From the NCBI GenBank assembly GCA_951406725.2, contig OX597835.1, positions 50,654,001-50,718,000 on the forward strand: DNA of 64,000 bases. The letters are read 5' to 3'. This DNA is from Octopus vulgaris. Its lineage: Eukaryota. The translations under genes and the position numbers were made by a program. The notes beneath the pieces were generated by a model, which had not been told where the DNA came from, made no database searches, and saw only the letters and a program-made list of their open reading frames with translations. Shown here piece after piece: positions 18,264-56,912 of the stretch (position 1 is its first letter; every line of letters begins with the position of its first letter).

Positions 18264-18360
18264 GGCCTCACTCAGAATGCCTGGTGAATGGCCAGATATG
18301 ATATTTTGACTGGATTTGATCTCCTCAGTAATGAATACCTCAGACTTTCTGAGTTAAGCC
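18264..18360 (-). ncRNA. Decayed hammerhead-like motif at the apex of an imperfect hairpin
   Basis: Minus strand: CTGAGGA-gatcaaatccagtc-AAAA(G12>A)-tatcata-TC, enclosed by ctcagaa/ttctgag and ggc/gcc pairing. Confidence 0.45.
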
Positions 18361-19709
18361 AAAAGTGCTGGTTCCAATTTAGTGATTTGAACAAATTGAC
18401 CAAATTTGCAAACTGATAGAACTCCATTTCAAAGGGATAAAAAAATGAGAAGCAAAAGACACATATGACGCAAAAGTATTTAAAATAAAATTAAATAAAA
18501 TAAAAATCAAAGAAATATGGTTTAATCTTGGAAATCACTTGACAAAAATACTTTAGTAGTGTCATAAAGAGAAGTTTGATGTGGTATTCAGCTGTAACTA
18601 TTTATAAGTGGACTAAAAGTGGAGAAGATATAGAAAATGACAGAATGGCAGTCAACTGTACCAGATTGATACAAGTAATGGTGTTGATGGTAGTAATTCT
18701 ATTACTAATATTACCCTGATCAGCCTTCACTGAGCAGATCTATGATCAAAAGACATTCCATTGTGACCATTCTGTTTATTTCCTTTTTAATTTCCACGGT
18801 AGATCTAAGACTACACTGCTTAATGTAGGCCTTGCTTTTTAAAGACTCTTAACAGCCAAATTTCTCACAGAATCACACCAATTTCTAATGGCCAATTTCT
18901 GCTCACCCAATCGGTTCACAACATGGAAGTTTGTAACCTACTGTAGATAACTAGTTTCAAAGTTAGTAAAAACTTCTATATTGTATTTCTTAAAATCTCT
19001 TTCCATAGCATTGACAATTACAACCAGTCTTCACTTTTTAAATAAATGAGAAACCACTTCATGTGAGCTACATATACTCCACACATGTACATAAAACAGT
19101 TATCCACACAATGGTGTAACAAGAACAACAACATTCATGTTGTTCTCACAAGCAAGAAATATCATAGCAAATGCAGATATGGCAGTATATTTAAGACAGT
19201 TTCAGCTCTAACTTCAGCATGCAACATTGAGCAAATGACTTTTAGCCATTGCCTCAAGTCAACCAATGCTTTGTGAGTGAAATTTGACAGACAGAAATTT
19301 TATGAAAACCTGCCAATACGATCATTCCTGTTCTTTGGTGTCATCCATAGAATCTACTCTGTTGTAAACATGCAGACCTGGATCAGTTTAACAACAACTT
19401 TTCCATGCTTGCATGGGTCAGATGGAACTTGTTGAGGTAGATTTTCTACAAACAGATACCCTTCATGTTGCCAACCCTCACCTGTTTCCAAGCAAGCTAA
19501 TATTTCCCATAGCTGGATGTATTTTCCTGAAAGACTGAAAGTAAACATTTACAGTCATCATGTGATGTCAAGACAAAGGTACACACACACACACACACAC
19601 GACAGGCTTCTTAAAGTTTCTATCATCCAAATTCACTCACAAGGCTTTGGTTGGCCTTGGAGGGAGTAATAAATTACTCCCTCTTTCTACCAGTCTCACA
19701 TGCCCTTAA

Positions 19710-19928
19710 CCCTTTCATTACCAACCCAGCTGAAACCGGCTCTGGCTTTGAGTACAAATATCTTGTTTTCATAAGTTTTGAATTAAAATCTTCCACCAAA
19801 CCTTTGTCACAATTTATGTTTCTAACACTAGTTGAATGATAAGTAAGTTATTTTACTAAATTCTTTATTATAATTGAAGTAATTGAAAGAACACAGAGCA
19901 TCTCAAAATAAATACAGTAACAAAAGGG
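19710..19928 (+). mobile_element. TTAA-flanked MITE (CCCT...AGGG ends, piggyBac-like)
   Basis: TTAA|ccctttcattacc ... gtaacaaaaggg|TTAA, 219 bp. Confidence 0.8.
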
Positions 19929-20142
19929 TTAAAAAGTCATCAGCACTACTTGTCATCCTTTGCCTAAGCCCCCTCAATCATTCCCCATAAGCTAGTACCA
20001 AGCAAGCTACAGTATTTTGTGAGTGACAGTGATGTTCCAAAGAAAACTATGCCCATGTTGAAAGGAAGTGCTCAGTGACACTAGAAAACAATGAAATCTG
20101 TTTCTCAATGATTAGAGGAAATCTTTACCCTTAAGCACTTAA

Positions 20143-20362
20143 CCCTTTAGTGTTTAAACCGGCCATAACCGGCAAAAATATTCTACCTATTTTATGTTCA
20201 GAATAGTCAGATATGGTCATTCATAGCTACCTTATTGTGTCATTTTAAAAATAAACAATCACATCAATGAAATCTCAAAGCCATGAAATGATGCAAGATT
20301 AATTTTACATGGTGTGAATACATAAGCTTTATATTTGACAGAATAATCTGAATGCTAAAGGG
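20143..20362 (+). mobile_element. TTAA-flanked MITE, second family
   Basis: TTAA|ccctttag ... ctaaaggg|TTAA, 220 bp. A partial copy follows at 20390-20541. Confidence 0.8.
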
Positions 20363-21825
20363 TTAAACCATTGATTTTATGTTGGGACTAGCCTCTCACA
20401 CCTACCCTATAATGTCATTCTAAAAATAAATAATCACATCATTGAAATTTAAAAGCTATGAGATAATGCATGGGTAGTTCAAAACAATGCAAATAAATAA
20501 GCATTACATTGGCCAGAATAATCTGAACGCTAAAAGGTTAAATGTTCATGAACACAGGTGTGACTGTGGTTAAAAAATTCACTCTGCAAACACAGGGTTC
20601 CCCCATTTGATCCTGCCGCATGGCATCATGGGCAAGTGGTTATCACAATTTTAGGCTGATGCAAATCTTGTGAATGGAGTTAGATTAAGTATAAATTTAA
20701 AGAGTTGAAAGCTAACATGCTCAACACACCAAGCAGTTAACTCTGTATGTGTGTGTGTGTGTGTGTGTGCGTGCGTGCGTGCATGTGCAGTGAAAAAAAA
20801 GACTAATATGAAATACAACTCTGGAAATATTTTAGTATTATTCTGACCTCATCAATGAAGCATAATCCCCACTGTATTTGGCACACAAGCTTTGTACACT
20901 GGTGAGCATAGGTAATTAGGATTGTTGAGAAATGAAAAGATGTTGTGAATAGTGTTATCAACTGGAATTTTGAACTATAAGAATAATCTAATAATACTGC
21001 TTACATTTCGTATGCTTTTATTTCCTTTAAACTGGTGTTCCAGCATGATCTTAAACATGATGAAAAAAAAAATTGAAAAACTAGTTTTATGCAACCTATT
21101 TTTCTGACTATTTTTAATAAAATAATTTGGATTGTTTATAGATGAATTTATGAGGATAGGAGATTGATCACAAGAGCAAAATATTTGAGAGTAATTTTTC
21201 TCAACAGTAGGAAGAAACAAGTGTAACTAAGACAAATGCAGCAAACCCATGCAACGCTCGAATAAATTAAATAAGCTACAATGTTAAAGACCTACTTCAG
21301 AAAAAATAAGTAAATTCTATTTAACCCAGTTTATGCTAAATTCTTAAATAATTAGTTTGTCTTAGTGATGGATGAAGAGAATAGAAGATGAAGTATAGTC
21401 AAAACCAAACATTTTTATATTGTGTAATCTTTAAATGCCTTTCAGATGAAAGGAATATTTTTACGTCATGAGGTTACTTACAAGGTCAAATAATTTGACG
21501 AGGATTCTTTTAGACAAAAACCAATGCTGTTATCACAGTCAATAAACAAGACTTTCTTTCTTTAGCATGTAAGTACTAGAAAAATTAGTTCATTAGAAAT
21601 ATATACATGCTTTTTCATTTATATTCTATAATTTTGTTTTCACTTTCTTAACATGATATAACTAACAAGTGTTACTAACCTAAAATGTTAAAGCAATATG
21701 GTTGCTCAGTGAATGTTTAATGCACCAAGCCCACTAACACATTAGTTCACATCCTTGGACACTTGTATATACATACATATATATATATAGATATATATAC
21801 ACATACATATATATATATATATATA

Positions 21826-21991
21826 TGCATTGATGTAAGAATAAGTTGTTCTATAAAGCCCGAAACATATGTACTGCAACATCCTTTGCGTCCTGTTTTT
21901 CATTTATTTCATTTGATACATATATCCTATCACCTATGCAACTAGCTGGCATATACAGGTGCTTACATTTATCAAGTATTCACCCTGAATT

Positions 21992-21995
<4 letters not shown>
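21826..21995 (+). mobile_element. Penelope-like terminal fragment in (TA)n with a decayed hammerhead motif
   Basis: tgca-TTGATGT...cGAAA-catatg-TA-ctgca (21826-21878), with palindromic stem III ACATATGT. Bounded by TA runs. Confidence 0.45.
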
Positions 21996-22029
<34 letters not shown>

Positions 22030-22038
<9 letters not shown>

Positions 22039-22274
22039 ATATATATCCACATATATTACATATATACATAGATATACATATATATATATTGATATATACA
22101 TATATATATATATATATATAGTACATATATATCCACATATATTACATATATACATAGATATACATATATATATATTGATATATACATATATATATATATA
22201 TATATAGTACATATATATCCACATATATTACATATATACATAGATATACATATATATATATTGATATATACATG

Positions 22275-22285
<11 letters not shown>
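22030..22285. repeat. 86-bp tandem repeat x3 built from microsatellite sequence
   Basis: gtacatatatatccacatatattaca starts at 22035, 22121 and 22207. Confidence 0.9.
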
Positions 22286-22319
<34 letters not shown>

Positions 22320-22395
22320 CTACACACACACACACATATATATACACACACATACACACACACACACATATACACACACATACACACACACACAC

Positions 22396-22442
<47 letters not shown>

Positions 22443-22568
22443 CACACATTTTCTTATACATATATATATACATATATATATATATACATATATATATATA
22501 ATTAGTAATGCAATATGAAAGTATTGCTTTCCAGTAAAGAATAGCCCGTGAGGGAAAATTATACATAG

Positions 22569-22959
22569 AAGTAAATATATGGCACAACGAAGTACCGATA
22601 TTTACTGGAAATAGCGAAAGTAATAACACAACGCTAATGTATAGCTTCACCGCGTATGTACTAGCAAAAATGCGTGTGTGCAACAAACTTTAAAAAAATT
22701 TGGCTGATAAAGATAGATCAAGTATATGTGTGGAGGCATATCTTGAAAAATCTGAAACCGGCTCCGGTCCCACATTATCCTTTTCTAGGTATTTCATCTT
22801 TCAGATGTTCTCCCTGAAGGTAAGACAAATTTTTTTCAAGTTTGTTGCACTCACGCATTTTTGCTGGTACATACGCGGTGAAGCTATACATTAGCGTCGT
22901 ATTATTACGTTCGCTATTTCCAGTAAATATCGGTACTTCGTTGTGCCATATATTTACTT
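22569..22959. repeat. Fold-back element with 134-bp inverted arms (22569-22702, 22826-22959) in (TA)n
   Basis: aagtaaatatatggcacaacgaagtaccgatatttactggaaatagcgaa... is the near-exact reverse complement of ...ttcgctatttccagtaaatatcggtacttcgttgtgccatatatttactt. Confidence 0.95.
22697..22776 (+). ncRNA. Type I hammerhead ribozyme-like motif (G8>A variant)
   Basis: aatttgg-CTGATAA-[aga..tcaag..atatgt/gcatat..cttga..tct]-GAAA-ccggctccgg-TC-ccacatt. Stem I pairs at 6 of 7 positions, stem II is long, stem III is ACCGG/CCGGT, and the site is GUC. Confidence 0.7.
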
Positions 22960-22996
22960 TGATATATACATATATATATATATACATATATATATA

Positions 22997-25900
22997 TGAT
23001 TTTGATTTTTCCAGTTTCAGTTCATGAGCTGTGGCCATGCTGGGGCACCGCCATTTGGTTTGCTACATGATTTTACCTCACGAATGCTTTTTAGCAACTG
23101 CCATTTGGTGCATGAGAGAGTTCGATGCAGCTGCCCTCATCTGCACCTCCTGCCATGAAGTTGGTTCATCCGGGACACCTGACAGGAAGAGATCCTGTCC
23201 TACTTTAAAGACATCCGCATCTACACCATGCAGGTCCCTCAGGTTCTTCGGGAGGATATTGAAGAGCTGTGGGCCTCTGAAGTCCAGGCTATCACAGTAT
23301 CTTGTCCTACATCTTGATGGCAAATTTGGAGTCCTTGGTACCACGCAGTGGTGCCCGGTTCTGGCATTTGTGGGACTCTCGATGCCAAAGTTTGGGACAA
23401 GTCCTTCCAGATATATATTATGGCATATCTTTCTCGCCTACGCTCCAAGGAATAGAGTTTTAATCTCTTGAGTCTTTCCCAGTAGCTTATATGCTGCACA
23501 GTGGCTATCTTCTTCATGTAGCTTCGTTGGATCGCCTCAAGTTCTGTGATCAACTTGACACTGGATGGTGACCATAGCTGAGAGCAATAGTCAAAGTGGC
23601 TTAGGACAAGTGTCTTCCAGAGGACCATCATGGTTTCTTGTTCTCTTGTTCTAAAGGTTCTAAGAATCCATCCGGCCAGCTGTCTACATTTCATTGCCAA
23701 TTTAGCAACATGTACATGAAAGGTCGCGTCATCACTTATGTGAATACCCAGGTCATGCACTGATTGTGCCTCTGGGATTGCAATCCCTCCGGGTCCAGTG
23801 TATTCATTGGGTATTGCATTCAGTTTTGCATGCTGATAGCATAAAGCTTGAAACTTTTCAGCATTGAACTGCATGCTATTCTTTTCAGCCCACTTGTATA
23901 TTTTGTCCAGCTCACATTGCAGGTGCTTAGTGTCTTCAGGGTTCTGTATTGCCTGTGAAACTTTTGTATCATCTGCATAACTTGTGATCGTGGCTCTCTG
24001 CGTGGCTGAGGGCATGTCTGAAAGGGCCATTATGAACAGTAGTGGTCCCAAAACAGTGCCTTGCGGAACACCGCTCACTATTTGTGCGTTATTGGAGGTG
24101 GCCTCATTGGCTACTACCACCTGACTTCTATCCTTCAGAAAGTCATGAAGCCATTCTCCCAATTTTCCAACTACGCCAAGATCACGCAGTTTGTGACATA
24201 TCATTCCATGATCGACTTTATCAAAGGCCTTTGCAAAGTCGAGATATATCACTTCCACATTTGTGTGGTTGAGCAGTCGTTTCAGCACCCAGTCATAGTG
24301 TTGTAGGAGCTGAGTTAAGCAGCTTCTTCCTGGTCGGAAACCATGTTGGGTGTCAGGCAGCAAGTCATTTTCTTCAAGGAAGGTGATTAGTTTCCTTCTG
24401 ACTATTCGTTCCATGACCTTGCTGATGTGTGAGGTCAGAGATAGGTCTGTAGTTCTTGGCCTCCGCTCTGCTACCTCCTTTATGAATAGGGCATATTTTA
24501 CCTTCCTTCAGTTTTCTTGGGAGTTTACCAGTTGCAAGGAAGCTCTGAAAGAGGAACTGCAGTGGTCTTGCTAGGACTCTCTTACATACTTTTAGAAGGA
24601 TTGCTGGGAATTCATCGGGGCCAGTAGCTGAGTTTGTGTTCATTTCATCTATAGCCTTTATTACATCGTCTTCCTTTATATTGATGTAATCAATCATCGC
24701 TGCCTCTGATTTTATATCTGCAGTGGTAAAGACGTCAGTTGCATTTGAAACTTTTGTATGCCGTCTCATTAGAATTTTCCTCTCTCTGGGGATTTTGTTC
24801 TTGTGTACAGTGGCCTTTCTCTCTGGGACACATTTGTAGCATATGGCTTGCATTACAGACATGAATTGTTGAAGTTTCATGTCGATGTCTGGCGAGGAGA
24901 GACATTCAGGCCAGTTTTGTTTGAGGATCTCTTTCTCAATTTGTTTCCAGTTTGCCTTATGGAAGTTCAAGCTGGAAAGATTCTCAGAGTTTCTTGTAGG
25001 CTGCATGTCCATGCTTTCCTTTGGCCCGTACATGGTCAGCTCTACCATGTTGTGATCCGAGAGTAGTGTCGGTGTCACTTTCACATTATGAATGAGATCC
25101 ATATTATTTGTGAAGCAGAGATCCAGTATGTTACCTGCCCTGGTTGGTTGGAGTATTACTTGTTCCATGTACAGAGTGTTGATGAGGTTCAGGAGGGACC
25201 TCACCTGTCCTCGTTCACATCGTGTCATTCCTGGGAGAGAAAGGCCCTCGGGCCTTCTGACATTGGGTAGATTGAAGTCTACCATAAGAAGTACACTTAT
25301 GTGTTGTTCCAATGTGACTAGAACTTCTATTTTTATAAGGCAGTCTTCGAACTTGCCTACATGGCTTGGGGCATCTGGAGGGCGATATGTAGCACATATA
25401 ACTACACCAAGTTGACTTATATGTACAATTAGTGTGTCACACACCGAATTTGAGTATGACAAAAGGACCTGGGGTGTGAGGCCCTCGCAGATGTACATAG
25501 CAACACCTCCATGACTCTTTTCTTTTCTGTCAGTTCGTAGTACAACATACTGTGGTATGTGTATTTCCGCATCTACTATGTCCGGTTTCAGGTGTGTTTC
25601 CGTAAGTGCTATGCATAAGGCTTGATTGCATGCAACAAAGTCTCTCAAGAACGGGATTTTTGTCCTGTTACTGAGTGTTAGCAGTCCTCTGATGTTCAGT
25701 AGGAGCATCGAGGTGATGTGTATGCTGTTGCCGGCGGTGTCCACCATGGGTCTGTTTACTGTGGCGGTCTTGTGTATTGTGGATAGTCCCATCTGCGAGA
25801 TTAAGTTTGATGAAGCCAGGTTAGCTGCTGTACAATCTTTTGTGCCATGCACAAAAAAGATTCTTGTTAAGCAGCTGCACTTTCAATAACATGTTGGCGG

Positions 25901-26040
25901 TTTGTAGCACGCACCACATCTGCGTACATCTGTTTTGAGGCAGTTGGTGCGTGGTCCATTCCTTTTCCTTTTGGTAGTTGGTTTCTATCCTATTTCATGT
26001 TTATGTGGCAGGGTCTTCGGTGTGCAAAACGGCAGCCTGC
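22997..26040 (-). mobile_element. CR1-clade LINE, ORF2 (APE endonuclease plus RT) with frameshifts and an internal deletion
   Basis: LLLNIRGL, ALTETHL, GGVAMYI, NILDLCF, SDH (EN); YLDFAKAFDKVDH, SGVPQGTVLGPLLF, YADDTK, SYWERLKRLKLYSLERRR (RT). The EN-RT linker looks shortened. Confidence 0.93.
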
Positions 26041-26216
26041 ACATATGTATATACATATGTATATATATGTGTATAACAGATCATTAGGAAGGGCATCCAC
26101 CTGCAGAAACTTCGAACAGATCAGATTGGAGCCTGGTGCAGCCTTCTGGCTCGCCAGTCCTCAGTCAAACCATCCAACCCATGACAGCATGGAAAATGGA
26201 CGTTAAATGATGATGA

Positions 26217-26255
<39 letters not shown>

Positions 26256-26320
26256 ATATATATATATATAGATAACAAAAGAAAGAAAGAGACCTCAATA
26301 TTATGTAAATAGAGGAAATT

Positions 26321-26513
26321 TATCTGTAAATTAATATGTTACCATTATACAATACTCAAGATAAAACTCTGAGTTTCAGATGCCGAAGTGGAAATCCACA
26401 ACACCATCTCTTCGGCGAGATAACGGAAGAGATGGTGTTGTGGATTTCCACTTCAGCATCTGAAACTCAGAGTTTTATCTTGAGTATTGTATAATGGTAA
26501 CATATTAATTTAC

Positions 26514-26518
<5 letters not shown>
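26321..26518. repeat. Near-perfect palindrome (93-bp arms, 12-nt loop) in (TA)n
   Basis: 26321-26413 vs 26426-26518, one mismatch seen. Confidence 0.95.
26417..26481 (+). ncRNA. Type I hammerhead ribozyme-like motif (U4>G variant)
   Basis: gagataa-CGGAAGA-[gatg..gtggatttccac..catc]t-GAAA-ctcagag-TT-ttatctt, with a 7-bp stem I and palindromic stem III. Confidence 0.6.
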
Positions 26519-26565
<47 letters not shown>

Positions 26566-26569
26566 GTAT

Positions 26570-26765: not shown

Positions 26766-26794
26766 AAAAATATATATACACACACACATATATA

Positions 26795-27010: not shown

Positions 27011-27024
27011 TATATACATATAAC

Positions 27025-27068
<44 letters not shown>

Positions 27069-27199
27069 CATATAACTATATATATACAAACACACACATA
27101 TGTATAATATATACATATATATACTCAGACACACGTGCGTGCACACATATATATACACACACACAGACACACACATAAAATGATGCTGACCAGTGCAAC

Positions 27200-30131: not shown

Positions 30132-31420
30132 TTAGATATAAAAATTAGATATAAAACATTTACTGGGTATAGGAACTGACAATAGTAGAGTAATGATAGG
30201 AATCAACAATGGTGTTTTCCAGAAATTAAAAGAAGTTCTATCATTATTTCTATTTAGAAGGGTGTGTCATTCTTTACAGTTGGCAGTATCCCACACTTGT
30301 GCTGAATGCTTGCCCATAAATTTAGAATATTTAGTATCCAAAACCTATAAATGGTCCTCTCATTCTTCAACAAGACAAAGTACCTACAAACAACTTTACC
30401 TTGCTATCAATGGTAAAAGAGCCTTTGAAGATTGTGAATTCTTGTACAACTAGGTGGCCCTCAACAGAACCAGCTGTAAATAGAATTTTAAGCCAATGGT
30501 TTGAATCCAAACTCACTTCCAAACTACAACTACAAAGAAAAAGGCTTTACGTTACATGAAATGTTTTGTGATTCTAGGAATGAACTTTACCTTTTATTTT
30601 TGCATCCTATTTTAAAACAAGTTCAGAAAGTGAATAAACTGTTCGAATCAAACACTGTCAGCAAAACAAAATTACTTGAAGATCTTTCAAATTTAATCAA
30701 ATTTGTTGCTAATATGATAGTGTTGCCAATATGTAGAATTGATCCTCTTGATCTGGATGATTCTATTGAAAAATTTCTGGATTCTAAACCAAATTTAGGC
30801 CACAGGTTCGAGAGAAACATATTAAAAATGATTATGAAAAAGATTGTAACAGCCACCAAAGAAAATAATATTCGCAAAAGAGTACAATTTTTACTCTGCT
30901 TTTATTAAAGAGCTCAAGCACCGTTTGCCAGAAAATATTAATATACTGAAGAACATCAAATGTTTTTCAGTAGAGAATATTTTGCAGCATTTCAAAGAGC
31001 CAATTTTACCTGTCTTAAAAGCAATGCATTTAAATAAGGAAAAAATTGCTTCAATTGAAATTCAGTTTCATAACATTCATTTAGTTAAATGGACAAATAC
31101 ATCTGATACTGAGGCATTCTGGCTAGAAGTCTTGGAATATAAAGATGCTACTGGAGGAAATCCTTTTAGAGATGTTGCAAATTTTGCCATTAATCTGTTG
31201 ACATTGCCAAACTCAACTGCAGAAGTTGAACGGTTTTCAGTAGTATGGATGTAATCAAATCAAAATTGAAAAACAAAATACATCTTCCTATGCTTAGATC
31301 AATAATGTCTATAAAATATGGGCTGAAAAGATAAGGTAAATGTTGCAAAAACTTTGATATTCCAAAATACATAATTAGCAAGATTGGGACCTTGGATGTA
31401 TACAGAATCAAAACCTAGGC
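30132..31420 (+). mobile_element. hAT-superfamily transposase remnant
   Basis: LGIGTDNSRVMIG, RRVCHSLQLAV (CxxH-type motif) and the dimerisation domain FWLEV...FRDVANFAINLLTLPNSTAEVERFS. Many frameshifts. Confidence 0.85.
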
Positions 31421-34385: not shown

Positions 34386-35242
34386 TATATGTGTGTGCAT
34401 CCTTGTGTCTGTCCCCTATTTGGTCTGTTTCATATTCATACTGGCCATATCTGACTTCTCACACCCAACCCACAATGTCATTCTGAAAATAAACAATCAC
34501 ATCATCTAAATCTCAAAATCTACAAGATAATGAATGATTAATTCAAAACAATGTGAATAAAAAAACATATTAGAGTAATCTGAATGCTAAAGAGGTTAGC
34601 TAAAAATAGTTTTCTAAATTAAGGAGTACATTTTTTTCCCATGATGGAACATTTTCCACCTACCCACCCTGACCTCACAACCACTATGACCACAAAAGTA
34701 AGCAAAAGTTCAAATACACATTGAAACAAACAGTTAAACTTAGAATTTTACAAGAACATCTCAGGTGCAGGTAAAGCTAGGTGGTTAAGAAATTCCTTTT
34801 GCAGCTTTGCTTCTAATGCACCCGAGGGCCACCTTGGTTAAGTCTTTTCTGCTATAAACTCGAGACTGCCCAATACCTTGTGAGTGACATTCATACAAAC
34901 TGTGTGGAAGCTGTGTGTGTGTGTGTGCGTGCACATGTAACTATAAATCAATTCCTCTCATGTTAGAAAACTACTATTTTTAAATCTCACAACATGAGAT
35001 ATTCAGCAACAGTACTTTGTAGTAAAGATTGTTTGCCAACATAACATGGCAATCCTAATTTAAGACAAATGTTGCTGTAATTTAACCGCAGGAGACATCA
35101 TCTCCAGTTGGCTATTTAACACGATCTGTGTCCTTATATTTTCAAACAAGGGAATTTCTTAATAAATTAGTGAGTAGTTGTCACTTTGAAAACTATATAT
35201 TTCAAACAGGAATTTGGCAGCACCACCTCTAGCCGAACAATT

Positions 35243-38200
35243 TTTCCTCAGTTACGCGTCATTATTTTCATTTGCTACCCAATCGTTACATGAGTTCGTT
35301 TCTGTTTGTGTTTTTATTGTTATTGTGTGTTACTGTACATTTATTTGAACTGCTGTCTTTTGATAAACAGTAATTTTCACCCTATGGGGCAGAAAATTTC
35401 TGATATTTTTGTGAACTGTTATTTTTGAAAATTTTGGTGACAAGTTTTTCTTGTCATTTGCAACAAGTATGGATTTTGACCTCACATCCAATATGGATTT
35501 TCCAGAGATGGGAGAAGTTAAAAATAACAACAAAAAACCAAAGGATAACCAGGAAAAACGAAGTTTTTCAGCCACCATAGGTGGTAATGTCACTGAACTG
35601 GAAGTAGCCATGGACAAGCTCTTCCAGTTCAGAAAATTAATTTTTAAAAAACAGAGAAGAAACTAAGGTGATACCACCCCCTGAAACTGTTCAGGCAATT
35701 CAAGAAAAAACTGTTGTTTATAAAATTTGCAGTATAAAGGATAAAAGAATTACTGAAGTAAAAAATGAAGTCATTGAATGATGTATGGCACCAATATGGA
35801 ACAAGATTTGCTACGTTAACCGAGGTGTAAGAAGTACTACAATAGAAGCACATTTCGAGTCAGCTAACGTAGCAAAAGAAATTTCGACTCAAACACTGAA
35901 GTGTGAGGAGATTATGTTGCTGCCTATGTATTTGGGTCATCAAACGACAAAAGCAATGGTTGAGGAGATACCTGTTGGTTACGAAGTCATGTAATATTTG
36001 ACATCGAAGGGAAATTAACAATCCTGAAATGGTGATACAAGCAGATAACTCAACATTAGAAAATTTGCCAGATAGAGTCTTTGTGGGGGAGGGGCATACA
36101 ATTCGTGTATCGATGGAGGGACATAGGTCCAGGTGTTTTAAGTGCGGGCAAAAGGGCCACGTTCGCTCTACCTGCACAAAGAAAAGAGCAGTCGAGGTTC
36201 CTCCCCAAACCATGGAGAAAAACACAGAGAAAAAGAAACAGGAAAACACAGCACTAACAAAAGAAAATAACAAAAACAACAAAATGAAAAACAGAATGAA
36301 AAACAAAAGGAAGAAGAAAAAAACAAACAAAAGAAAATGAACAAGAAGATATGGAATACACAGCAGTTACCTACAAATGGAAAAAAGATAGCACCCCCAG
36401 ACTCCCCTCCCCAAACAAAAAGGAAAACTACAAACACCAACGAACAATGACAAAAAATTTTCCAATCCTACCCCCCGCCAGTGCTACGTTGATAGGACAG
36501 GCCAGTGTTTCAACATAGCCCACCCACCCTAACACTAAAAGGCTTTAAAAAACAGACAGGATTGTTGCTTTCAATGTTAAAAATGAGAGGGTTTTATGCT
36601 TGATTAAAGCACACCCACACATTAAATTTTTTAAGGTGACAGACAAAGAGTCTGACATTCATTATGCCAAAGTCAGAGGGGAGGAGTGGAAAGGAAAACT
36701 GCTCTAAGAACATGTTAAAGACAATTTAATCAAAGATGTCACCCAGGAGGTGATAGCCGGGAAGCTAGTTATCAGCCTGGCAGCCATTCTAACAGGTGAA
36801 AAGCCCAGCAACTACGGAAAGTTTTGGGGAAGCAGGCAGACAAAAACTTGCCATGTCCCCTTTTACAAATTTGTTTTCTTTCTTCAATGATTAAGTTAGG
36901 TTGTTTAAATGTGCATGGAATGGGGTTGAGATGGAAACAGGCTTGTTTCCTGAACGACCTCATGACACATAGAATAGATGTGGCTATTGTAACCGAGTCC
37001 AAGATGAGTGGACCTCAAGCATTCTCGTCTCTTCTGAGTGGTTACGAGAAATTTATTTCTCCTAGCCAAGGAGGGGGTGCAGGCATGGCAGTCCTTATCA
37101 GGAAGAACTTGGACTTACAGATAAGTACTGTCTTTCTGGACCCAGAAGGTAGGCTGGTTGTACTAGATGTGACATACGTGAGTACACAATCCTTCAGGTT
37201 GGTAGCTGTATACGCTTCTCAGAAGGGTATGCAGTCAGGTTTTTATCAGGAACTGGAGCACTTTCTAGTGACGTCTAAAACATTAGTTTTTTTAGGGGAC
37301 ATCAACACTATCCTCGAAGCGCAGGTCAATAGTGTGGGCTCAACTGATAGGAAAGGGAATCCTTGCCTCAAATGTCTACTACAGAGCTATAATCTAGTAG
37401 ACCATTACTGACTGGATGAGCCAAGCGTTCCAAAGTGGACATGGAGTAACAATGACGGCTCACGCAGATCGTAACTAGATAGGGTATTTATTAAAGAAAG
37501 AGATAGTGTTAGTTGTCTACAATTTTGTATTGTGCCTTACACAGATCACAAACTTGTGACGTGTGAGGTACACGTAGATAAATGTCATAGACAGAGACCC
37601 GGGTATTGGAAAATGAACAAGTCCATTTTGACTTGTGAAGCTTTCTGTACCCGGATTAAGGTGTTAGTTCAGAGGGCATTATGTGGCACCATCATTAACA
37701 ATAGATGGTGGCACACCCACAAAAGAGCCATCCGTTTGGCGTCCATTAGATTTAGCAAGCAGCTGGGTTTAGATAGGACTAGAACAGAGGGCGATTTAGT
37801 TAAGAACTTAGATGAGGCAATGGAATCTGGCTCTGCATCTAGAGTGTTGGCAGCGAGAACAGTCTTGTACCGTCACCTCAATGCCAAGCATGAAGATTGC
37901 AGAGTCAGAGCTAAGCTACATGCAGGGAAACGAGAAGGTATTAATGTTGCTGGATGGGCTCGTCGTGAGGAGAATCAGAGAAGTAAAAAGTCCTCTATAA
38001 AGTCTTTAACGGATGAACAGGGGCGCAAGATCTATGGAGAGGAGAAGATGCAGAAAGTCTTTCACCAGCATTTCACTCGGTTGTTCAGGGAAAGTGGTCC
38101 GCTTGAGCGGGGAGAGACCTTAAAGGACTTCCTAACTGGTGGACCGCGACTCTTGGCACGTGAGGCTGAATGCTGTGAAGGACCAATCACTCCCGCAGAG

Positions 38201-40480
38201 GTAAGAGAGGTGTTGGCTGAGTGTGCCAGGGAAAAGTCGCTGGGGTTAGATGGTTTGCTCTATGAGTTTTATCGTTGTATGCCGGACTTGTTCAGGGATA
38301 TACTGGCAGGTGTCTATGCAAACTGGCAACAGAATGGGAGGATTCCCAGTTCTGTGAGCCAGGGAGTTGTGACACTGGTCCAGAAAGACCTGAGCAAGTG
38401 GGGTAGTATCTGTAATTATAGGCCCATAACTCTACTTAATGTAGAGTTAAAGATTTTGGCGAAGGTGTTAGCAAAAAGGTTGACGGCTGTCATGGAGAAA
38501 ATTGTTGGAAAGGCGCAGACATGTACAATCCCAGGCAGGTTGATCTATGATAATCTTCACCTTCTCCACTACACCTTCGATAGGGTTGGGAAATTAGCCG
38601 TCAAAGGAGGAGCATTGGGCCATTTAGACCAAAGTAAAGTGTTCAATAGGGTAGACCATTGATACCTGGCGGCAGTCCTCGAAGCGGCTGGGCTGGGCCC
38701 TGGCTTTCATGGGTGGATCTCCGCTATGTACAGCGACATCAAGTCCACAGTCCAGATAAACGGCTACCTAACGGAGCCGTTTTCAATCAAGCATTCTGTT
38801 CATCAAGGGTGTCCCTTGTCTCCGCTTCTGTACGTTTTGGCTCTTAAGCCATTGCTGCAGAAGTTGGAGAAGTTTGGAGGCAACTCAAATGAAATCGGAT
38901 GCAGTAAGTCTGTTTCTGCTTATGCGAATGGTGTCATCCTCATCATGTCCAACAAAGCACAACTACCTCATGTAGAAGATGCTCTCCAAGGATACAAAGC
39001 ATTGGCAGGGGCAAAAGTTAACAATGACAAGTCCATCGGTTTGCGCCTCGGCACCTAGAGGAACAAGCCAATATCATCCAGTGTCGTTGGACACTGGACA
39101 GATGGTCCTGTTAAGTTGCTTGAGTTTGGTTTGGTTCAGACTCCCAGACAGAAATTTGAAGCAAGGTAGTGGACAAGGTGAAGGCAATAGAACGGAAGTG
39201 GTCTGGAAGGCCCCTGTCCTTGAAGGGCAGGGCAGAGGTGGTGCAGGTGTTCATAGCATCTGTAACCACCTACCACCTGTCCATTGTGCCTTGCCCCGAT
39301 TTGTGGCTAAACAAGTTGGAATGACTCCTCTTCCACTTTTTGTGAAGGGAGGAAAGCCACTTGTGAGGCACTCTGTTTGCTGCCAGGAACCATTAAAGGG
39401 TGGACTGGGAATGCCCTGGCTAATGCGCAGACATGCATTGAGGCTGAGACATCTCTGGTCCCACCTGGAGAGTGATAAGGTGTGAGTCTGCTAGCGGAGG
39501 AGTTCTTGCCACGATCAGCCTCTTTGGAGAGATTTAAACCCGGTTTCATTAAAAAACGTAATCTGACTTTATGGCAGAAGGAGTGCCATCTAGCACTCTG
39601 GCTGATCCACAAGACAGGCAAGGCCGGCAGTGGGAATACCACCTCAGTGTTCTATAGAGGGCTGGTAGAGGCAAAAAGCGATGACGTCCTAGGAGGGGCT
39701 CTGGGGTTCAATGAGAACCAACTTGCCAACCTGTTCAAAAGAACTTTCAGGCCAGGGTACTTGGACAACTAAAAATCCCTGACCTGGCAGTGCTACAGGA
39801 ATGCATTACCTGTTTGTGATAAGTTATCCAAGCACGGTTTGTCAGTGCCACTGACATGTCCAAGATGTGGACTGGACGTTGAAACCGTTCAGCACGCTTT
39901 TATCGGGAGCTATCTAGCTTCATAAGTTATGTCGAACACATGTTGTCGCATCTGGGACGAGTACAGCTGTCAACTGGATCTATAATAAAGATGATACCGC
40001 CAACTGGACCCTCAAGGAAGGTAAGGCTTGTTTTTACTGTACAGTTGCAGTACTGAAAGAGTGTGTTTGGAGGACTAGAATGGAAGGTTTTGTGACAGGG
40101 TCCTTCGTCTCTGGTCCTGGTTTGCTGTGTTACTTCAGATACCATCTGAAGAGCAAGATGGGGTTCACCGAGTGAATATGAGGAACGATGGAAGGATGTG
40201 TTGAGAAAGGTGGGTGTCAGTAACCCAGCTTAATCATCGATGAAAGGAAAAGCTAGTTGCTGGGACTTATAGGCTGCCAGCTTCAATCTTTTAAACTTTT
40301 ATTGTTTTATTTCTTTGTTTTATTTTTAAAAAAAGTTCTAGTTAAAGGTAAAAAATTAGTTATTCATATAAAATAAATTTTTAACATAATGCTCATTCGA
40401 ACTCATTTAACATTTTTGTATTTGTTTGTCTTGTAATGTCCTTTTCTATGTACGATCTTAATGATCATAATACAGATTTT
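35243..40480 (+). mobile_element. Full-length but decayed Tx1/L1-clade LINE with 18-bp TSD
   Basis: TSD acctctagcYgaacaatt at 35225-35242 and 40481-40498. ORF1 with zinc knuckle CFKCGQKGHVRSTC. ORF2 EN (LGCLNVHG, TDHKLV, PGYWKMN), RT (YRPITLLN, QGCPLSPLLY) and C-terminal CPRC..ETVQH. Multiple stops and frameshifts. Confidence 0.93.
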
Positions 40481-40500
40481 ACCTCTAGCTGAACAATTAT

Positions 40501-40545
40501 TCTGTGCTGATGAAGGGAAATAATCTGGAAATCATGATACACAGA
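40501..40545 (+). ncRNA. Minimal type I hammerhead ribozyme with intact catalytic core
   Basis: tctgtg-CTGATGA-agggaaataatctg-GAAA-tcatga-TA-cacaga: perfect 6-bp stem I, weak stem II, palindromic stem III ATCATGAT, predicted cleavage after A40539. Confidence 0.8.
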
Positions 40546-43500
40546 TATTGTTTTGAGCTGAGTGGGGGTGCTAGATTCCCTTGTTCGAAAATATAAGGAC
40601 ACAGATCATATCATATAGCCAGCTGGAGATGATGTCTCCTGGGGCTAAATTACAGCAACATTCATCGTAAACCAGGACTGCCATGTTATGTTGGCGAACA
40701 ATCTTTCCTCTCATTTTATCTTCCTCATCCCACCACCATTGCCAAGAATCACCACCCATTCTCTCTTCTATTATCTGTTAGTTACAGAAGCCACTTCAGG
40801 CTCTTAGCCTTGCAACTTATGAGGTGATCTCCATTGTTGATGCTACAAAAAGCATCTAGCATACACTGTAAAGTGGTTGTTATTAGGAATTGCAACGAGC
40901 TATGGAAACCATCCAAAGCAGATACTGACGCAGAAACACAGTCCCTTGGCTTTGTAGATCTAGTTGAACTGTCCAGCCCATAGATACATGGAAACTGGAT
41001 ATTAAATGAGACTATGAGAGTGTGTGTGTGTCTGTGCACACAACAAAACCATGAACTAGAAACCCTTAAACAATTATCACCCTTAAGAAATATAATCCCT
41101 ATAAAAGGACAATGAGGTTCAGGTACATGGTGAATATGAGACAGAATAGGGGGAAAAGGTATGTGCACTGAGTGAAAAATAGTGTGACAGGATTAGAGAG
41201 AAGAAACGAGTTGGATGCAGGAGAGAGCAGTTCAGTGTATAGGGAAGTGAAGAAAATAGGGTAACATAAAAGACTGGGTGTGAGAAGATGAGCTGCAAAA
41301 GAAGCCTCAATTCTGCTGAGATGGATGGGTCTTCTCAAGCACAGCATAAAACCATGCATCTTCATCTTCCCCCACCACCATCATCTCCCCGGAGGTTCAA
41401 ATTATATGTGTGTGTGTGTATCAACAATAATAAGGATTATTACAAAGGGACATAGTATTATTAACTGTTGTATAACCTATTCTGAATACCTAACTGACAG
41501 CAAACTGGTAAATGTTTGGAGTAAAGTAGTGTACTAAACAGAAATCCCTACAATAAGTACCATATATACAATTAAGTGCTAGATTGATATGGCTAACTTT
41601 AAAAAAAAAACTTACAAGATTGTGCTCTAGTATGGCCACTGACTCATAACTGAGGCAAGTGAAAAGGTAAGCGTTTTTGCAATTAGAAAACAAATACATA
41701 AATTTAATGGAAAAGAAATTTGGACAAAATTTGTCTTCAATTTTGTTTTTTCTATCAAGAGTTATTTTTTTATGCATCTATTTTAAGAAAAACTAAATTC
41801 TACAATTTCTAAAAGTATCTAATCACAGGAGCAGGTTCCAAACCAAAAATATATTTATAGGACTTAACATTTGGTTTGATTTTCAAAATCAATGTTGGAT
41901 AAGGTGGAGATAGGAGTAGAGATGTCAATGTGAACGTCTTCAGTAATCCTAGTACACACATAAGACTGCCTGCATTAGATATGTGTCAATGCTTGTAAGA
42001 GTGTGTGTGTGTGTGTGCTTAGAGGAGTAAGTCTGTGTGCTTACAGAAATATGTGTAAGTGAATATACGAGTGAGTGCACAAGCACCAGTGAAAGTGTGG
42101 AAGTATGTATGTGTGAGTGAGCAAGTGTGGAAGTGTGTGTGTGTGCACACGCATATGAATGAGCATGAGTGTGTGTGTGTACATATAAATGAGGGTGTGT
42201 GAGTGAGAGTATGTTAACAAGTGAGAGTGCGTGAATGTGTGCATTTTCAGTAAATCAACTCCAAGCTGACAAACCCAGTTAGGAAACTGATAACTTTGGC
42301 CTTAAACAGAGTCAGTTAGTTTTCTCAAATGTAGTTCAATGCATAAATTACACTTTAGGGTGAGTAGCAGAAGGAGGTGGGATGGAAGGAGATTGAAATA
42401 TCAAAAAGTTCTGGATTATAGAATATTCAGGTCATACAAATATTTTCTCTAAATTCCAAGAGTCTGAGATAGTGCACAGCCTTTGGTCATTGGATTCCCA
42501 GACCATTGTAGACTATGGTTGGTGGATGGTATAATTGGTAGAGCATTGGATAAAATATCTTTTAGCATTTGGTTATGCCTATTTATGTTCAATTCCCAGA
42601 GTTCAATTCCCAATCAAGTTCACTTTACTGTTTACTCTTCCAAAATAAAGACTGTGACCAATCACTAACCAGTAATTTAGTCATCTAAATGCTTAGGAGA
42701 AATGTATACAAGTTTTAATAAACCCATTTTAATCTCACACATTCCCACCTAACACAAGCGTCTCTTGATAGAAACCCATTCAGGCAATGATTAGGACATC
42801 AACCAGCCAGTAAGATACTTTGCAATTTACTTGTTAATACTTCAGAAAGTTATAGAGTGTTTACACTTTGATGCGAGTCTATATCTAGCACTTGACAATG
42901 AGGAATAAAAAATTATGGAAGATAAACTAGGAATCATCTTAAATGTGCAACAACAAATATTACATTGGTACAGGCATGTGATGGATGGGAAACATAACGA
43001 GTAAGTGAAGAAACATCCAAGGGGAGGGAAACTGGAAGAGAAAGACCAAGACCAAAGAAATAGTAGAAGCTGATCTCAGGATCTTTTACTTGTTTTAGTC
43101 ATCAGACCTCAGCCATGCTGGGGCACCACCTTGACAAATTTTTAGTTGAATGACTCAAACACAGTACTTTATTTTTTTTTTTTAAAGCCTAGTACTTATA
43201 TTTTTTGCTGAACTGCTAAGGGGACACAAACACACCAACACCAGTTGTCAAACAGTGGTGGGAGGACAAATACACACACACAGAAGCTTCTTTCAGTTTC
43301 TGTCTACCAAATCCATTCAAAAGCTTTGGCCAGCCTGAGGCTATAGTAGAAGACACCCAAGATGCCATGCAATGGTATTGAACTCAGAACCATGTGACTG
43401 AAAAGCAAGCTGCTTACCACACAGCCATGCCTGTCCATAAAATATGATAATATCTGAATTAAGAAAATAATAATATACTAGGAATGTTATTGCTGGATGC

Positions 43501-45856: not shown

Positions 45857-47900
45857 GTGTGGAAAGAAGCTATCAAGTAGACCTGAAGACAGTAGTGCAA
45901 AGAGGAACCATAAAGGATTACACTGGATATCAAATGGTGTTTTAAAAATGCTTGATAAGTTAGTAGAACTAAGTTATATTGCCAAAACATTAAATCTTTC
46001 AATGTCTACAGTGGAACAATGCATGACAACAGTATAAAAATTGTCAAGAGCTCAAGAAGTTACCCCATTAACTGTCCAGACCTTATTTTTCCATAGATCT
46101 AAAGTCATGGAACAACTACTGAGTGTATGGATTGAGCATCAGAATCAGCGTAATGTGCTGATAAACACAATGGTAATTCAAAAGAGCCAACAATTTATAC
46201 GACGATTTTCAGAAAAAGGAAGGTGAAACTTCTAAAGGAAATACCTTTTTTACTAGCAAAAGCTGGTTTGAAAGGTTTAAGAAATGTATGAATTTGCATG
46301 GCATGAAAATGACTGGTGAAACTGAGAGCGCGGATACAGAGGCTGCTACTAATTATCCCGAGAAGTTGAAGAAAATGATTGCTGAAGGGAGCTACACACC
46401 CAAGCAAGTATACAATGTTGATGAAATGGCACTTTTCTGGAAGTACATGCCTGCTAGAACTTTTATTTCTCAAGAAGAAAAATTGACACCAAAATTGATA
46501 GCTTCCAAGTTTTGAGAAGAAATACGTCTTTGGGAGGAAATACTACTTGACTTGACTTGACTTGACAGCATTCACCCGGGGTGGATTGAGCTGGCTTCAT
46601 TCATCCTCAATGCTGCATCTCTCACAAACACCGACCAGGCCTGGCAATTTGAGGCTAACAACCGTGTGATCTCCAACCACTCCTTATTCCAGCGGCGAAC
46701 GTCATAGATATGGGGGCCTAGGTTGGGTTCCAGATCAGCCTTGATTGTCATCAGCCAGGTTTTTCGTTGTCCACCACATCGCTTTCGCCAACCCTGAAGG
46801 GGACCTGGGGCAATTGCTTCGTAGATGAATTCTCCTGATTGACAACGGCGGGCATGACCCAGCCAACGCAGACGTCTCATTAGGATGACTTGTCGGAGGG
46901 AGGTGATTCTGGACTGGTGTCGCACCGAATTGTTGGAGACAAAGTTAGGGTATATCATGTATATCAGGAAATACTACTAGTAACATGAAATTAAAACCCC
47001 TACACATGTATCATTCTGAAAATCTTAGGGCTTTCAAGGGTTACACAAAGTTTAATCTGATTTGACATTCAAATGAGAAAGCATGGATGACTTTCAGAGT
47101 CTTTTCAGAGAATGATTTATAAACGTATTCGTCTGTGGTACAGTGCCAAACAACATTTCCAACAAAGCATTGCTTCTTTCAGACACTACACTGAACCACC
47201 CAGTGAACTTAGATGACCTTTCTGATAATGTGAGTGGAATATATCCCCATGAATGCACCTTTTTCGCTCCAGTTGTACTAGCTAACTTTAAGGCATATTA
47301 TACAAGAACTTTTAAACAACTTATAAAGCTATTGATGGGGAGGATATACAAACAGTTAAAGATTTCTGGAAGAAATTCTACATAATGGATGCTGTGGATA
47401 ATACAGCTGAGTTGTGGGATGAAGTGAAACCTTCATCTTTGGATAGTGCTTGGAAAAGTAGATGACCAGACTGTATCCATGACATTGCAAGTTCTTCCTC
47501 AAGCAGAGAGTGTACATCAAATTTGGAAAGATATTGTGACACTTATAAAGAATGTAGGATTTGAAAAAGTCATAGAGGATGATGTGATTGAGTTGCTAGT
47601 GCTAATGAGAAGTTGATACCATTAGAACAAGCTGAGAATACTGAGGAGACAACATAAGTTACACCTACACTCAAAAACTACAAAAATTATTGCTAAATGG
47701 TTGGCACTGATAGAGGAAGGTCTGTAGGTTTTTGCTGATAATGACTAATTGTGAATGTAACAAAGATTACAAGAGGAGCTTACAATGAACTCAATTCCAA
47801 CTGAGCTGCAGAAAGAAATGATGCGTCATAAATAACAAACAACTTTGGATAAGTTCTTCACCCATCAAGCTGATGTTAATGACAACAAAGAATAAGATAC
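45857..47900 (+). mobile_element. Tigger/pogo (CENP-B-like) transposase remnant
   Basis: MEQLLSVWIEHQ, SWFERFK, LHGMKMTGETESAD...YTPKQVYNVDEMALFWKYMPARTF, NKALLLSD, ANFKAYY. Frameshifted. Confidence 0.88.
46548..46965 (-). mobile_element. 5'-truncated RTE insertion in Tigger with 13-bp TSD and (CAAGT)n tail
   Basis: TSD aggaaatactact at 46535-46547 and 46966-46978. ORF 46572-46958 RRLRWLGHARR...WRKRCGGQRKTW. Confidence 0.9.
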
Positions 47901-54299: not shown

Positions 54300-54715
54300 A
54301 CAGTTTCAAATCCGGTTCAAGGCCAGCAATTTCAGGACAGGTGGATAAGTTGATAACATCAACTCCACTACTTAACTGGTACTTATTCTATAGACACCAA
54401 AAGCATGAAAGGCAAAGCTGACCTTGGCAGCATTTGAACTCAAAACATAAAGACAAACGAAATGCAGCTATTTTGTCCCGCATGCTAACAATTCTGCCAG
54501 CTGAATAATGGTTTCAAATTTTGGCATAAGGTCAGCAAGTTCAGGAGAGGGGGTTAAGTCAATTACATCAAGCGCAATACTCAACTGATACACTTTTTAA
54601 TCAAGGATGAAAGGCAGAGTTGACCTTGGTGGAATTTGAACCAGAAAAATAAGACTGACGAAATGATGTTAAGCATTTTGCTCAGCGTGCTAACAATTCT
54701 GCCAGCTGTCCACCT
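54300..54715 (-). mobile_element. Two tandem Meta-like SINE copies
   Basis: Repeated ...atgaaaggcaRagYtgaccttgg...atttgaac...gctaacaattctgccagctg. Confidence 0.7.
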
Positions 54716-55135
54716 CCCACCAGCTCAATAATGACAGCTATTTCACTAAGTCTTCATTATATTTACTCTTTTACTTGTTTCAGTCATTTGACTGTGGCCA
54801 TGCTGGAGCACTGCCTTTAGTCAAGCAAATCAACCCCAGGACTTATTCTTTGTAAGCCTACTACTTATTCTATCGGTGTCTTTTGCTGAACCGCTAAGTT
54901 GCTGGGACGTAAACACACCAGCATCAATTGTCAAGCAATGTTGGGGGGACAAACACAGACACACAAACATATACACACACACACTAGGCATAGAGATGTG
55001 CTGTAAAAAGCTGATTTCCCAACCATGTAGTTTGGAGCTCCGTCCCACTGCATAGCATCTTGGGCAAATGCCTTCTACTGTAGCTCTGGACCAATCAAAG
55101 CCATGAAAGTAAATTTGTCAGATGGAAACTGAAAG

Positions 55136-55175
<40 letters not shown>

Positions 55176-56869
55176 ATGTGCGTGTGTGTGCATGTGCGTG
55201 TGTGCGTGCGCACGTATCCTTTTTCTGGTATTACATGATGGTTCTAAATGAACATTAGTCATACAAGTGATGTTCATTTCCAATCTTCTGTGAAAAACAT
55301 GTCTAGCCATGGAGAAATATTAGCTTGCTTGGAAACAGATGAGAAATGACATCATGATGGGCAGCCACCACTTATATGGATGACAAATACAATCCTTTTT
55401 TCATGGTAGAGGTGAGAGTGCAGGACAAAAAGGGTTGAGACACACAGACAGAGTGTGTCTAAGGCCAAAGTCACAAAATACTTCGGTGCATCTGGTAATA
55501 AAATAGATACTAGAGTTGTACCACTGTTGTAACTAGTGGGAGTACTATAAATTGACAAGTGTTTTCTTTATTTGCATGTATGTGGCTGAGTGGTTAGGGC
55601 TGTTGGACTCACAACTGTAAGGCTGAGGGGTTGGATTGATTCCTTGAGTAATGTAATTCATTTCATATTGCTGAAAATGAGTGTATGTGCAGCTGAGTAG
55701 GCTTCACAAGCTGCTAGCCCAAAATCTACCTTGTAAATGCAAAATCTCAACAACCCTTGATGGCCACAGGTAAACAATATGATGGCAATAACAGTGGTGG
55801 TGGTGATGATGAAAAGGAGAGCTTGCAGTGTTTAAATTCTGTTCCTCCTACAAGTTTAAATTAGGAGGAACAGACTTAAAGGCCAAAGCTGATTTGCTCC
55901 AGATATGCCATAAATAGAGGAAGTGGTACCATTTTAATCCAAAGAATGATAAGACTCACCATAGTCACTAATGAGGAGGAGAATGTTTGGTTCTGTAACA
56001 CAAATTCACAAACAATATAGGTCATAGATTATAGTATTAAGTGATGTGTAACAGTGATAAGACTCTTGGCTGCTCATGGTGGAAACATTTTTCATTTTCA
56101 TAATCACAGACAGAGTTCCTAAAAATGTATATGTCACCTAAAAAAATGTGTATTTTTTAATTATTATTCTTTTTTCCTCCCCCTCAAAAAAGTTATTTGG
56201 CTGCTTGAGTTAACATGAAATGCCACATCAAAGAAAGTGTTAAGAGCTGATTTGTTAGGTATAAAATTATTATCAGAGGTATACAGGAGATACCATCACC
56301 ACTATTATAAACAGCACTATCACACACTTCATTTATCAAACACATACGCATAATATTGGCATCTCCTCTGGATGTGTGCATATACACACACACGTCTGTG
56401 TGTATATAGACATATGTGTGTGTATATAGACACTTTGTCTGTGTGAGTGTGTGTGTGTGTGTGTGGGTATGGATATAAGATGAAACCTTAAATGCAAAAC
56501 AACCGCCAAAAGTGAAAAGAATAAAAAGTCATAATAATAATCACTGTGGTGATGATCATTACTTGATCTATTTCCTCTGAGAGTGGACGCAACAGTTTTT
56601 GATTGTGACTATTGATTGTCTCAGATCAGACACTGCTAGTCCTGCTGGAATTCAACCACACACACACACACACACAACCACCACTCTTTCTGCTACAAAA
56701 CATTAATAGTTATCGCCAAGCTAATATGGCAGTCCATAGATATAAGACTAAAGCTGCCATTGATTAGCTCCAAGAGGCCATCACCTCTAGCTAGCTATAT
56801 GACACGAACCTGTGTCCATTATAACCTTCGAACAGGGGAGGTCAGCCACTTCCCCTTGCTGGTCAGGCA

Positions 56870-56912
56870 TCTGCAGACATGTTTCAGAGTATTTGCCCTT
56901 TATCAATGCAGA
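56870..56912 (-). ncRNA. Minimal type I hammerhead ribozyme, U3-A8 core variant
   Basis: Minus strand tctgca-TTGATAA-aggg caaata ctct-GAAA-catg-TC-tgcaga. The flank gacacgaacctgtgtccattataaccttcgaacagggga resembles 35118-35155. Confidence 0.75.

Follow-up and report, generated by a model that had tools for sequence, protein, structure and literature searches.

Seven hammerhead repeats in one octopus window

The window analysed here, a 64,000-nt stretch of Octopus vulgaris DNA (assembly GCA_951406725.2, contig OX597835.1, positions 50,654,001 to 50,718,000 of the forward strand), is repeat-rich (38% GC), with many (TA)n and (CA)n runs, broken LINEs (long interspersed nuclear elements) and transposases. 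A first-pass annotation had proposed six minimal hammerhead ribozymes with a palindromic stem III, plus a half motif near position 4980. The seven sites are probably copies of seven type I hammerhead families, two of them being the 3' ends of Penelope-like elements (PLEs) and four being likely retrozymes copied by Penelope enzymes, with the repeat at 40501 split by a Tx1-like LINE that has a fixed target, likely a transcription start site. That LINE was absent from the first-pass reading. Genome-wide searches of the 2.8 Gb assembly, with one query per site, returned seven separate dispersed families, in line with the several distinct families that had been proposed. They are denoted A (40501), B (56870), C (22697), D (26417), E (21826), F (18264) and G (4980); first-look candidates ranged from 43 to 2920 per family, figures that are not copy numbers.

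Family A is present in two colinear parts separated by the LINE. The 5' part (34963-35242) comprises an inverted long arm (34963-35155) and a sense arm (35159-35242), in the latter, counted from the LINE site, a TATA-like run lies near -30 and a U2-like motif near -59. The 3' part (40481-40710, forward strand) carries the short end of the 350-nt unit. Between them lies a decayed 5.2 kb L1/Tx1-like LINE (35243-40480, forward strand), flanked by an 18-nt target-site duplication whose left copy (35225-35242, forward strand) is identical at 17 of 18 positions to the right copy (40481-40498). The LINE is located 26 nt ahead of the family A core. The hammerhead itself (40501-40545, forward strand) has a canonical core at 40507-40513 and stem III at 40531-40538.

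Family B (56702-56918, reverse strand) is a truncated copy of a ~360-nt unit without an open reading frame (ORF), related to A (65% alike over 164 nt), with a hammerhead at 56912-56870 and a U3-A8 core at 56906-56900. Family C forms a fold-back (22496-22968) of an ORF-less 434-nt tandem unit, with an inverted long arm (22496-22700) and a sense arm (22699-22968); its core (22704-22710) carries a G8A change private to this copy and is accompanied by a 12-nt stem III (22757-22768). Family D (fold-back at 26270-26521; core 26424-26430, stem III 26465-26473) corresponds to the 3' pseudo-long terminal repeat (pLTR) of a PLE assigned below to the Hydra clade; the family core has U4C, and the window copy has a private G at position 4.

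Family E (21824-21995, forward strand) is a young copy whose 5' end is cut at a (TA)n run. It retains GAA (21862-21864), stem III (21865-21872) and H17 (21873); the true core was lost with the 5' end, and what had been taken for it is a piece of the stem II insert. Family F (18159-18395, reverse strand) is an old (~70% identity) copy of a ~300-320 nt tandem unit with a decayed type I hammerhead of canonical size (core 18328-18322, reverse strand, with G12A in the window copy and a decayed stem III). Family G (4925-5050) is a fold-back of two truncated 3' ends, one short and one long, of an older Penelope/Poseidon-like element. The half motif recognised there is real: it is the 3' half of a hammerhead from a family with an intact ribozyme.

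The proposed sequences are present at every coordinate and all six stem III palindromes were found. The CUGANGA/GAAA core attributed to all six motifs is intact in 40501 only. Censuses of copies selected by likeness to the window copy recovered the intact core in A (34/39), C (19/22), E (46/54), G (19/33) and F (14/36 spanning copies) and a covariant U3-A8 core in 25 of 29 copies of B. At the family level the core, or its known covariant, is present in these six families but not in D, where 0 of 38 copies have the canonical core and at least 30 of 38 have U4C, which is also found in intact young elements. U4C is a described natural variant of low activity (PMC3088659; here and below, published systems are taken as described in the cited portions of the sources). 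Because the family cores are intact, 22697 and 18264 are private mutants, and 21826 and 4980 are 3' halves. Each site is, as judged from its family's sequences, a copy of a type I hammerhead repeat family predicted to self-cleave. In intact young Hydra-clade elements (L255-L258, L264) a pyrimidine-rich stretch of stem II could pair with the U4C core, although folding gave no preference for this pairing.

Hammerhead descriptors, adjusted once the motifs were known, were compared with local dinucleotide shuffles, the test that had been named as able to refute the proposal. The canonical-core descriptor found one site in the window and none in 20 shuffles; with up to one core mismatch there were three sites versus a shuffle mean of 0.35 (one of 20 shuffles reached four); with up to two mismatches, stem I of at least 6 and a palindrome of at least 6, five sites versus a mean of 0.2 and a maximum of 1; and with a canonical or U3-A8 core, two sites versus a mean of 0.03, none of 60 shuffles equalling that. 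The window thus exceeds the shuffles for all but the loosest descriptor (two mismatches), which matches shuffles too (mean 1.5). A tight family A pattern had 235 exact matches, versus 0 for the reversed control. The estimate of roughly one motif per 10 kb applies to the window but not to 200 kb of arbitrarily placed DNA (7 family loci, 2 descriptor hits), relative to which the window is about threefold denser in loci of these families.

The suggestion that the fold is kept while the palindromes vary agrees with the covariation of the helices. Among 12 rows of A, B and F picked by the analyst, double changes occur in 11 of 14 named pairs, C3-G8/U3-A8 being among them; 0 of 500 shuffles reach this, and slid controls drop off. 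Compensatory variants of stem III and stem II occur in C and E, and the stem III palindromes covary within C and within B subfamilies. The hammerheads are not all minimal, as had been claimed: in A, B and F helices I and II are of canonical size and stem I is extended. The Rfam hammerhead models, recommended as a check, gave no hammerhead match in the window, and Hammerhead_1 gave none in A or B copies; two of three family F relatives score 29.5 and 28 bits, short of the cut-off of 34. Rfam matches to alfalfa-virus, miRNA and snoRNA models were rejected as microsatellite noise.

Nearest-neighbour energies, which are predictions only, put the cost of closing stem III within one molecule at 2.6-5.7 kcal/mol for A and B and near zero for D, E, F and G, whereas in C closure is favourable by 4.8; when the 6- to 12-nt palindromes pair between two molecules, the predicted energy is -4.6 to -26.5. 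Because of these stem III energies, the proposed action as dimers appears plausible for A and B but unneeded for C, whose 12-nt stem III is computed to be favourable in the monomer.

A Tx1-like LINE and its landing site

The LINE encodes a zinc-knuckle ORF1, an APE endonuclease and a reverse transcriptase (RT); its relatives also contain zf-RVT, which is missing from the broken window copy. A protein search with it returned no named Tx1 protein, and the element is provisionally classified as L1/Tx1-like by its domains and target specificity rather than by an RT tree. In 10 of 30 family A loci (its own included) the LINE tail is joined at the same base, a count that is biased because the query held 101 LINE bases. 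With a query of LINE DNA only, the 3' end could be located in 24 of 30 loci: in nine, counting the window's own, a hammerhead core follows at +19 to +32, as it does at 46 of 3000 random positions, and three more align with hammerhead units, for a total of 12 of 24. At the 5' end, BLAST matches 6 of 30 to family A, and by eye hammerhead units come before about half.

Among 20 long-frame relatives, taken from 150 RT matches with their flanks unseen when chosen, 12 lie in hammerhead units (seven at one base of B-type units and five others, by eye) and two lie at U2 +1. The seven B-type insertions are near-identical copies, with a 17-nt duplication directly visible in four. Further relatives insert at U1 +1. 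According to these alignments, the LINE's relatives have landed repeatedly at one corresponding base in several hammerhead families, and also at U2 +1.

At least five more families of hammerhead units, U4C or U3-A8 being present in some, came to light only as LINE hosts (L342, L350, L353, L355-357, L359, L365-367, L404, L410, L412, L416, L417). A LINE subfamily occupies one site of a short repeat bearing terminal inverted repeats and resembling a miniature inverted-repeat transposable element (MITE), with a 15-nt duplication (L344, L349, L354, L372-374, L381). Head-to-tail stacks of near-identical LINEs with a period of ~5.3 kb are found at C9:59206894-59249628, C5:29181674-29203284 and C2:73049888-73066867.

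When flanks were aligned at the first duplicated base, AT(C/T)AG at -58 to -62 followed by a TATA-like run near -30 was found in 11 of 12 target flanks (the motif being defined post hoc from the same sequences), and the same motif lies at -57 to -61 in 18 of 18 LINE-free U2 flanks (among 20 loci), versus 232 of 20000 positions in random DNA. It precedes the core by 81-83 nt in F versus 85 in A, and is absent from C, D, E, G and the Neptune-like end described below. Because the U2-like motif sits at -59, the LINE site is likely the transcription start of the hammerhead unit. The hammerhead repeat of newt satellite 2 has been reported to have an internal small nuclear RNA (snRNA)-type Pol II promoter (PMC2220036). 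A U6-type promoter was also considered and rejected, as the U6 flanks are without the motif. One U6 copy (L431) is preceded by sequence like an L342-type hammerhead unit, perhaps a template-switch chimera.

A bolder proposal, which we regard as tentative and would not bet on, is that the radiation of Tx1 LINEs targets the snRNA-type promoter itself, i.e. the +1 of U2, U1 and hammerhead retrozymes, switching between them with almost no sequence change. A somewhat less likely explanation, which we doubt, is that the site reflects a plain endonuclease preference of separate Tx1 lineages, its overlap with a start site being a by-product and the motif no working promoter. The targets often start with A(C/T)C, subfamilies are loyal to one target (seven near-identical copies in B, others in the MITE-like repeat or in unrelated DNA), and target choice has been ascribed mainly to the endonuclease (PMC4494074). 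However, L404, from a hammerhead unit, shares 99.5-99.7% identity with L413/L414 at U2 +1, even though these targets have only their first four bases in common, and the distance from motif to site is equal in the units and in U2 genes.

Penelope-linked ends and the ORF-less units

Family D is the 3' pLTR of a young element, in which many 717-aa frames upstream of the ribozyme are intact; in L258 four family D units of 2590 nt are arranged head to tail, the ribozyme lying ~200 nt past the stop codon. A single ORF (<3 kb), RWK, DKT, CxCx5C, CxxC and CxH motifs, the pLTR and (TA)n sites constitute all the clade marks given in the cited portions of PMC8557442, and on these motifs rather than a tree the parent is assigned to the Hydra clade of PLEs. 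The protein has no Pfam match. Family G shows the decayed end of an RT/endonuclease ORF, then a tRNA-like stretch, then the ribozyme in 19 of 20 loci (L202 being outside the 19), with a tblastn match to a PLE protein in 5 of 20; its parent appears Poseidon-like, a label derived from fragments rather than a tree. The tRNA-like stretch (L200-L219), between the PLE stop codon and the hammerhead, has A- and B-box-like motifs; ARAGORN called no tRNA in it. Possible roles are transcription of a short RNA by Pol III or the seeding of a short interspersed nuclear element carried by the PLE.

Family E has at least 1.4 kb of common non-coding DNA upstream, with no consistent ORF in eight long loci; the PLE fragments in three of the eight differ from one another. 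ORF fragments of PLEs lying next to copies of B, D and E (L190, L194, L189, L310) were considered as parents and rejected, since they are separate (TA)n insertions with their own 3' ends. Unrelated PLE families stack at the same (TA)n runs (L190, L194, L189, L261, L310), imitating linked ORFs. The window has no PLE ORF apart from a weak match to an RT fragment (8014-8241, E 0.005). An autonomous Neptune-like family with 781-aa frames has a U3-A8 core and the same stem III as family B; L181:771-5610 is a full element of this kind (ORFs of 359 and 781 aa) between two U3-A8 hammerheads, with many identical intact copies.

Families A, B, C and F occur as ORF-less head-to-tail units of 350, 360, 434 and ~300-320 nt, with GC <45% and a longest ATG frame of 25-73 aa in B, C and F. 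The circular folds of A, B and C have z-scores of -4.9 to -7.2, whereas a flank and the D end score -0.8 and -1.5, respectively. In each family the 3' end takes two fixed forms, one long and one short, and both are present in 17/17 fold-backs of A, 15/16 of C, 16/16 of D, 12/13 of E and 13/14 of G (in B only three were readable, the B reference running into a microsatellite). This two-ended footprint corresponds to the PLE tail of Craig et al. 2021 (PMC8557442). Because the ORF-less A, B and C share it with the true PLEs D and G, Penelope enzymes may be inferred to act as helper for these units. Co-occurrence and phylogeny were so far the grounds for proposing such a helper; the footprint adds physical support.

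The first-pass annotation had inferred non-autonomous, Penelope-derived or retrozyme-like families and advised looking for flank clusters, tandem copies and linked ORFs. Its inference agrees with the ORF-less tandem units of A, B, C and F and their Penelope link, but not with 26417 and 4980, which are 3' ends of ORF-bearing elements; linked ORFs were recovered for D and G, but not consistently for E. We consider it likely from sequence that A, B, C and F are units like non-LTR retrozymes, with a predicted circular RNA. An improbable alternative is that they are detached, tandemised pLTRs of PLEs whose ORF-bearing parents are unsampled or lost, the ribozyme being inherited baggage. The end footprint is indeed identical to that of D and G, C has the long stem II and 3-bp stem I of PLE variants, B shares its U3-A8 core and stem III with the autonomous Neptune-like element, and retrozymes have been derived from pLTRs (bioRxiv 10.64898/2026.07.22.740005). 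However, the units recur head to tail with a fixed period and without an ORF, their folds are well beyond those of shuffles, which is not so for the D end, and the U2-like motif, missing from D, G and the Neptune-like end, is found in A and F.

In three unstranded RNA-seq runs from a related organism, possibly of a different species, 1458-1898 reads in ~12 million match family A, most of them 90-95% alike and on both strands. Read differences at L025:1385-1734 are mostly A>G and T>C, as in adenosine-to-inosine editing; species or copy divergence is the alternative.

The following scheme would accommodate the retrozyme reading. A U2-type promoter inside the unit would start RNA 25-32 nt before the core; because this start lies just before the core, a tandem copy would yield an RNA with two ribozymes. 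Cleavage would follow, by dimers joined at the palindromic stem III in A and B and possibly by a monomer in C, and the cut unit would circularise. A Penelope RT/GIY-YIG protein would then write the unit back as more-than-unit, fold-back DNA, and the LINE would gain a promoter together with a harmless multicopy landing site. If true, this would amount to three tiers of parasitism, with the LINE in the retrozyme and the retrozyme on Penelope, and the LINE insertions would mark the start of an internal promoter, explaining the constitutive expression of retrozymes and the need for tandem copies.

Several observations speak against this scheme. There is no pile-up of read ends at the family A cut site in the three runs, and head-to-tail joints in family A reads are also expected from tandem DNA. 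The A-G mismatch at the stem II base in A and U4C in D are both expected to slow cleavage, and 8 of 9 predicted Xenopus retrozyme dimers failed to cleave (Li, Clavereau & Pollet 2026, bioRxiv 10.64898/2026.07.22.740005). A single F unit, a decayed copy, folded with a z-score of only -0.85. The A, B, C and F units show no homology to 24 autonomous-element loci, among which no helper can be named. As regards the landing site, 6 of the 20 long-frame LINE relatives lie in other targets, and three more in the MITE-like repeat. The motif is approximate in family B and missing from C, is lacking in the U6 flanks and in the one usable U1 flank, and was derived from these same sequences, in which related copies are not independent.

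The idea that AT-rich repeat DNA full of hairpins produced the motifs by chance, to which loose descriptors matching shuffles, the missing Rfam match in the window and the five of seven window copies that are not intact might seem to point, is refuted at the family level by the core censuses and covariation, as family majorities restore the fold, the tight pattern finds matches where its reversed control finds none, and the motifs are placed at PLE 3' ends.

Apart from these families, the window contains a satellite of 25 copies of a 44-nt unit (57681-58784, 92% matches) and a broken LINE with endonuclease and RT frames (23078-25882, reverse strand) that is unrelated to the hammerhead-targeting LINE. 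The segments 930-1988, 10456-10809, 16333-16746, 30142-31254 and 46177-46515 we take to be Helitron, Tc1/mariner, hAT and Tigger-like fragments; the last has a Pfam match, and the other labels are presumed.

Comparison with known systems

PLE hammerheads with a palindromic helix III, a U3-A8 core and a dimer model are in print (Cervera & de la Pena 2014, PMC4209133). The octopus families resemble them in having type I ribozymes in pLTRs, a small palindromic helix III, the U3-A8 variant, an extra base before stem II with G10.1-C11.1 (family G), and dispersed truncated and inverted copies. They differ in a stem III of up to 9-12 nt, in the U4C fixed in intact young elements of D, and in the A-G at A's stem II base. 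Family D is like the Hydra clade of C-terminal EN+ PLEs (PMC8557442) in its single ORF, 2.6 kb unit, motifs, (TA)n insertion and ribozyme. The supplement of that paper lists Hydra-1_Obim without a pLTR, whereas tandem pLTR copies are plain in D, the two being compared by description only. The tails of A-E are 55-70 nt, compared with 30-40 nt in PMC8557442.

Families A, B, C and F are like animal non-LTR retrozymes (PMC7229834 and the 2026 preprint): ORF-less tandem units of 300-434 nt with GC <45%, a type I ribozyme and a self-paired fold. Mussel retrozymes measure 350-390 nt, and a PLE has been proposed as the helper (Cervera & de la Pena 2020, PMC7229834; Li, Clavereau & Pollet 2026). Unlike these, the units described here have a predicted circular RNA, occur mostly as 1-3 units with fold-back arms, show no pLTR homology and have a U2-like upstream motif. 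In newt satellite 2 a promoter has been reported (PMC2220036), while in our units it is suggested by sequence and LINE position only. Our literature search, outside which lay Repbase and subscription journals, found no cephalopod retrozyme study and no Tx1 element targeting hammerhead repeats. The ribozyme families are thus best regarded as putative new members of known biology, and Tx1 LINEs in retrozymes as a candidate target class not found in print.

Target-specific Tx1 LINEs include Tx1L in Tx1D, Keno in U2 and Tx1-Mar in Mariner-N4 (Kojima 2015, PMC4494074). Our LINE resembles this group in its APE-type endonuclease, zinc-knuckle ORF1, fixed insertion base, 16-18 nt duplications, tandem stacking and multicopy targets, U2 and a MITE-like repeat among them. 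In contrast to the elements described there, its main target is hammerhead retrozymes, with several families hit at the corresponding base, and near-identical copies switch between U2 +1 and a hammerhead unit. Such near-identical LINEs with different targets offer material on how site-specific LINEs change their target, and the recurrent landing base points to a likely promoter of the retrozyme.

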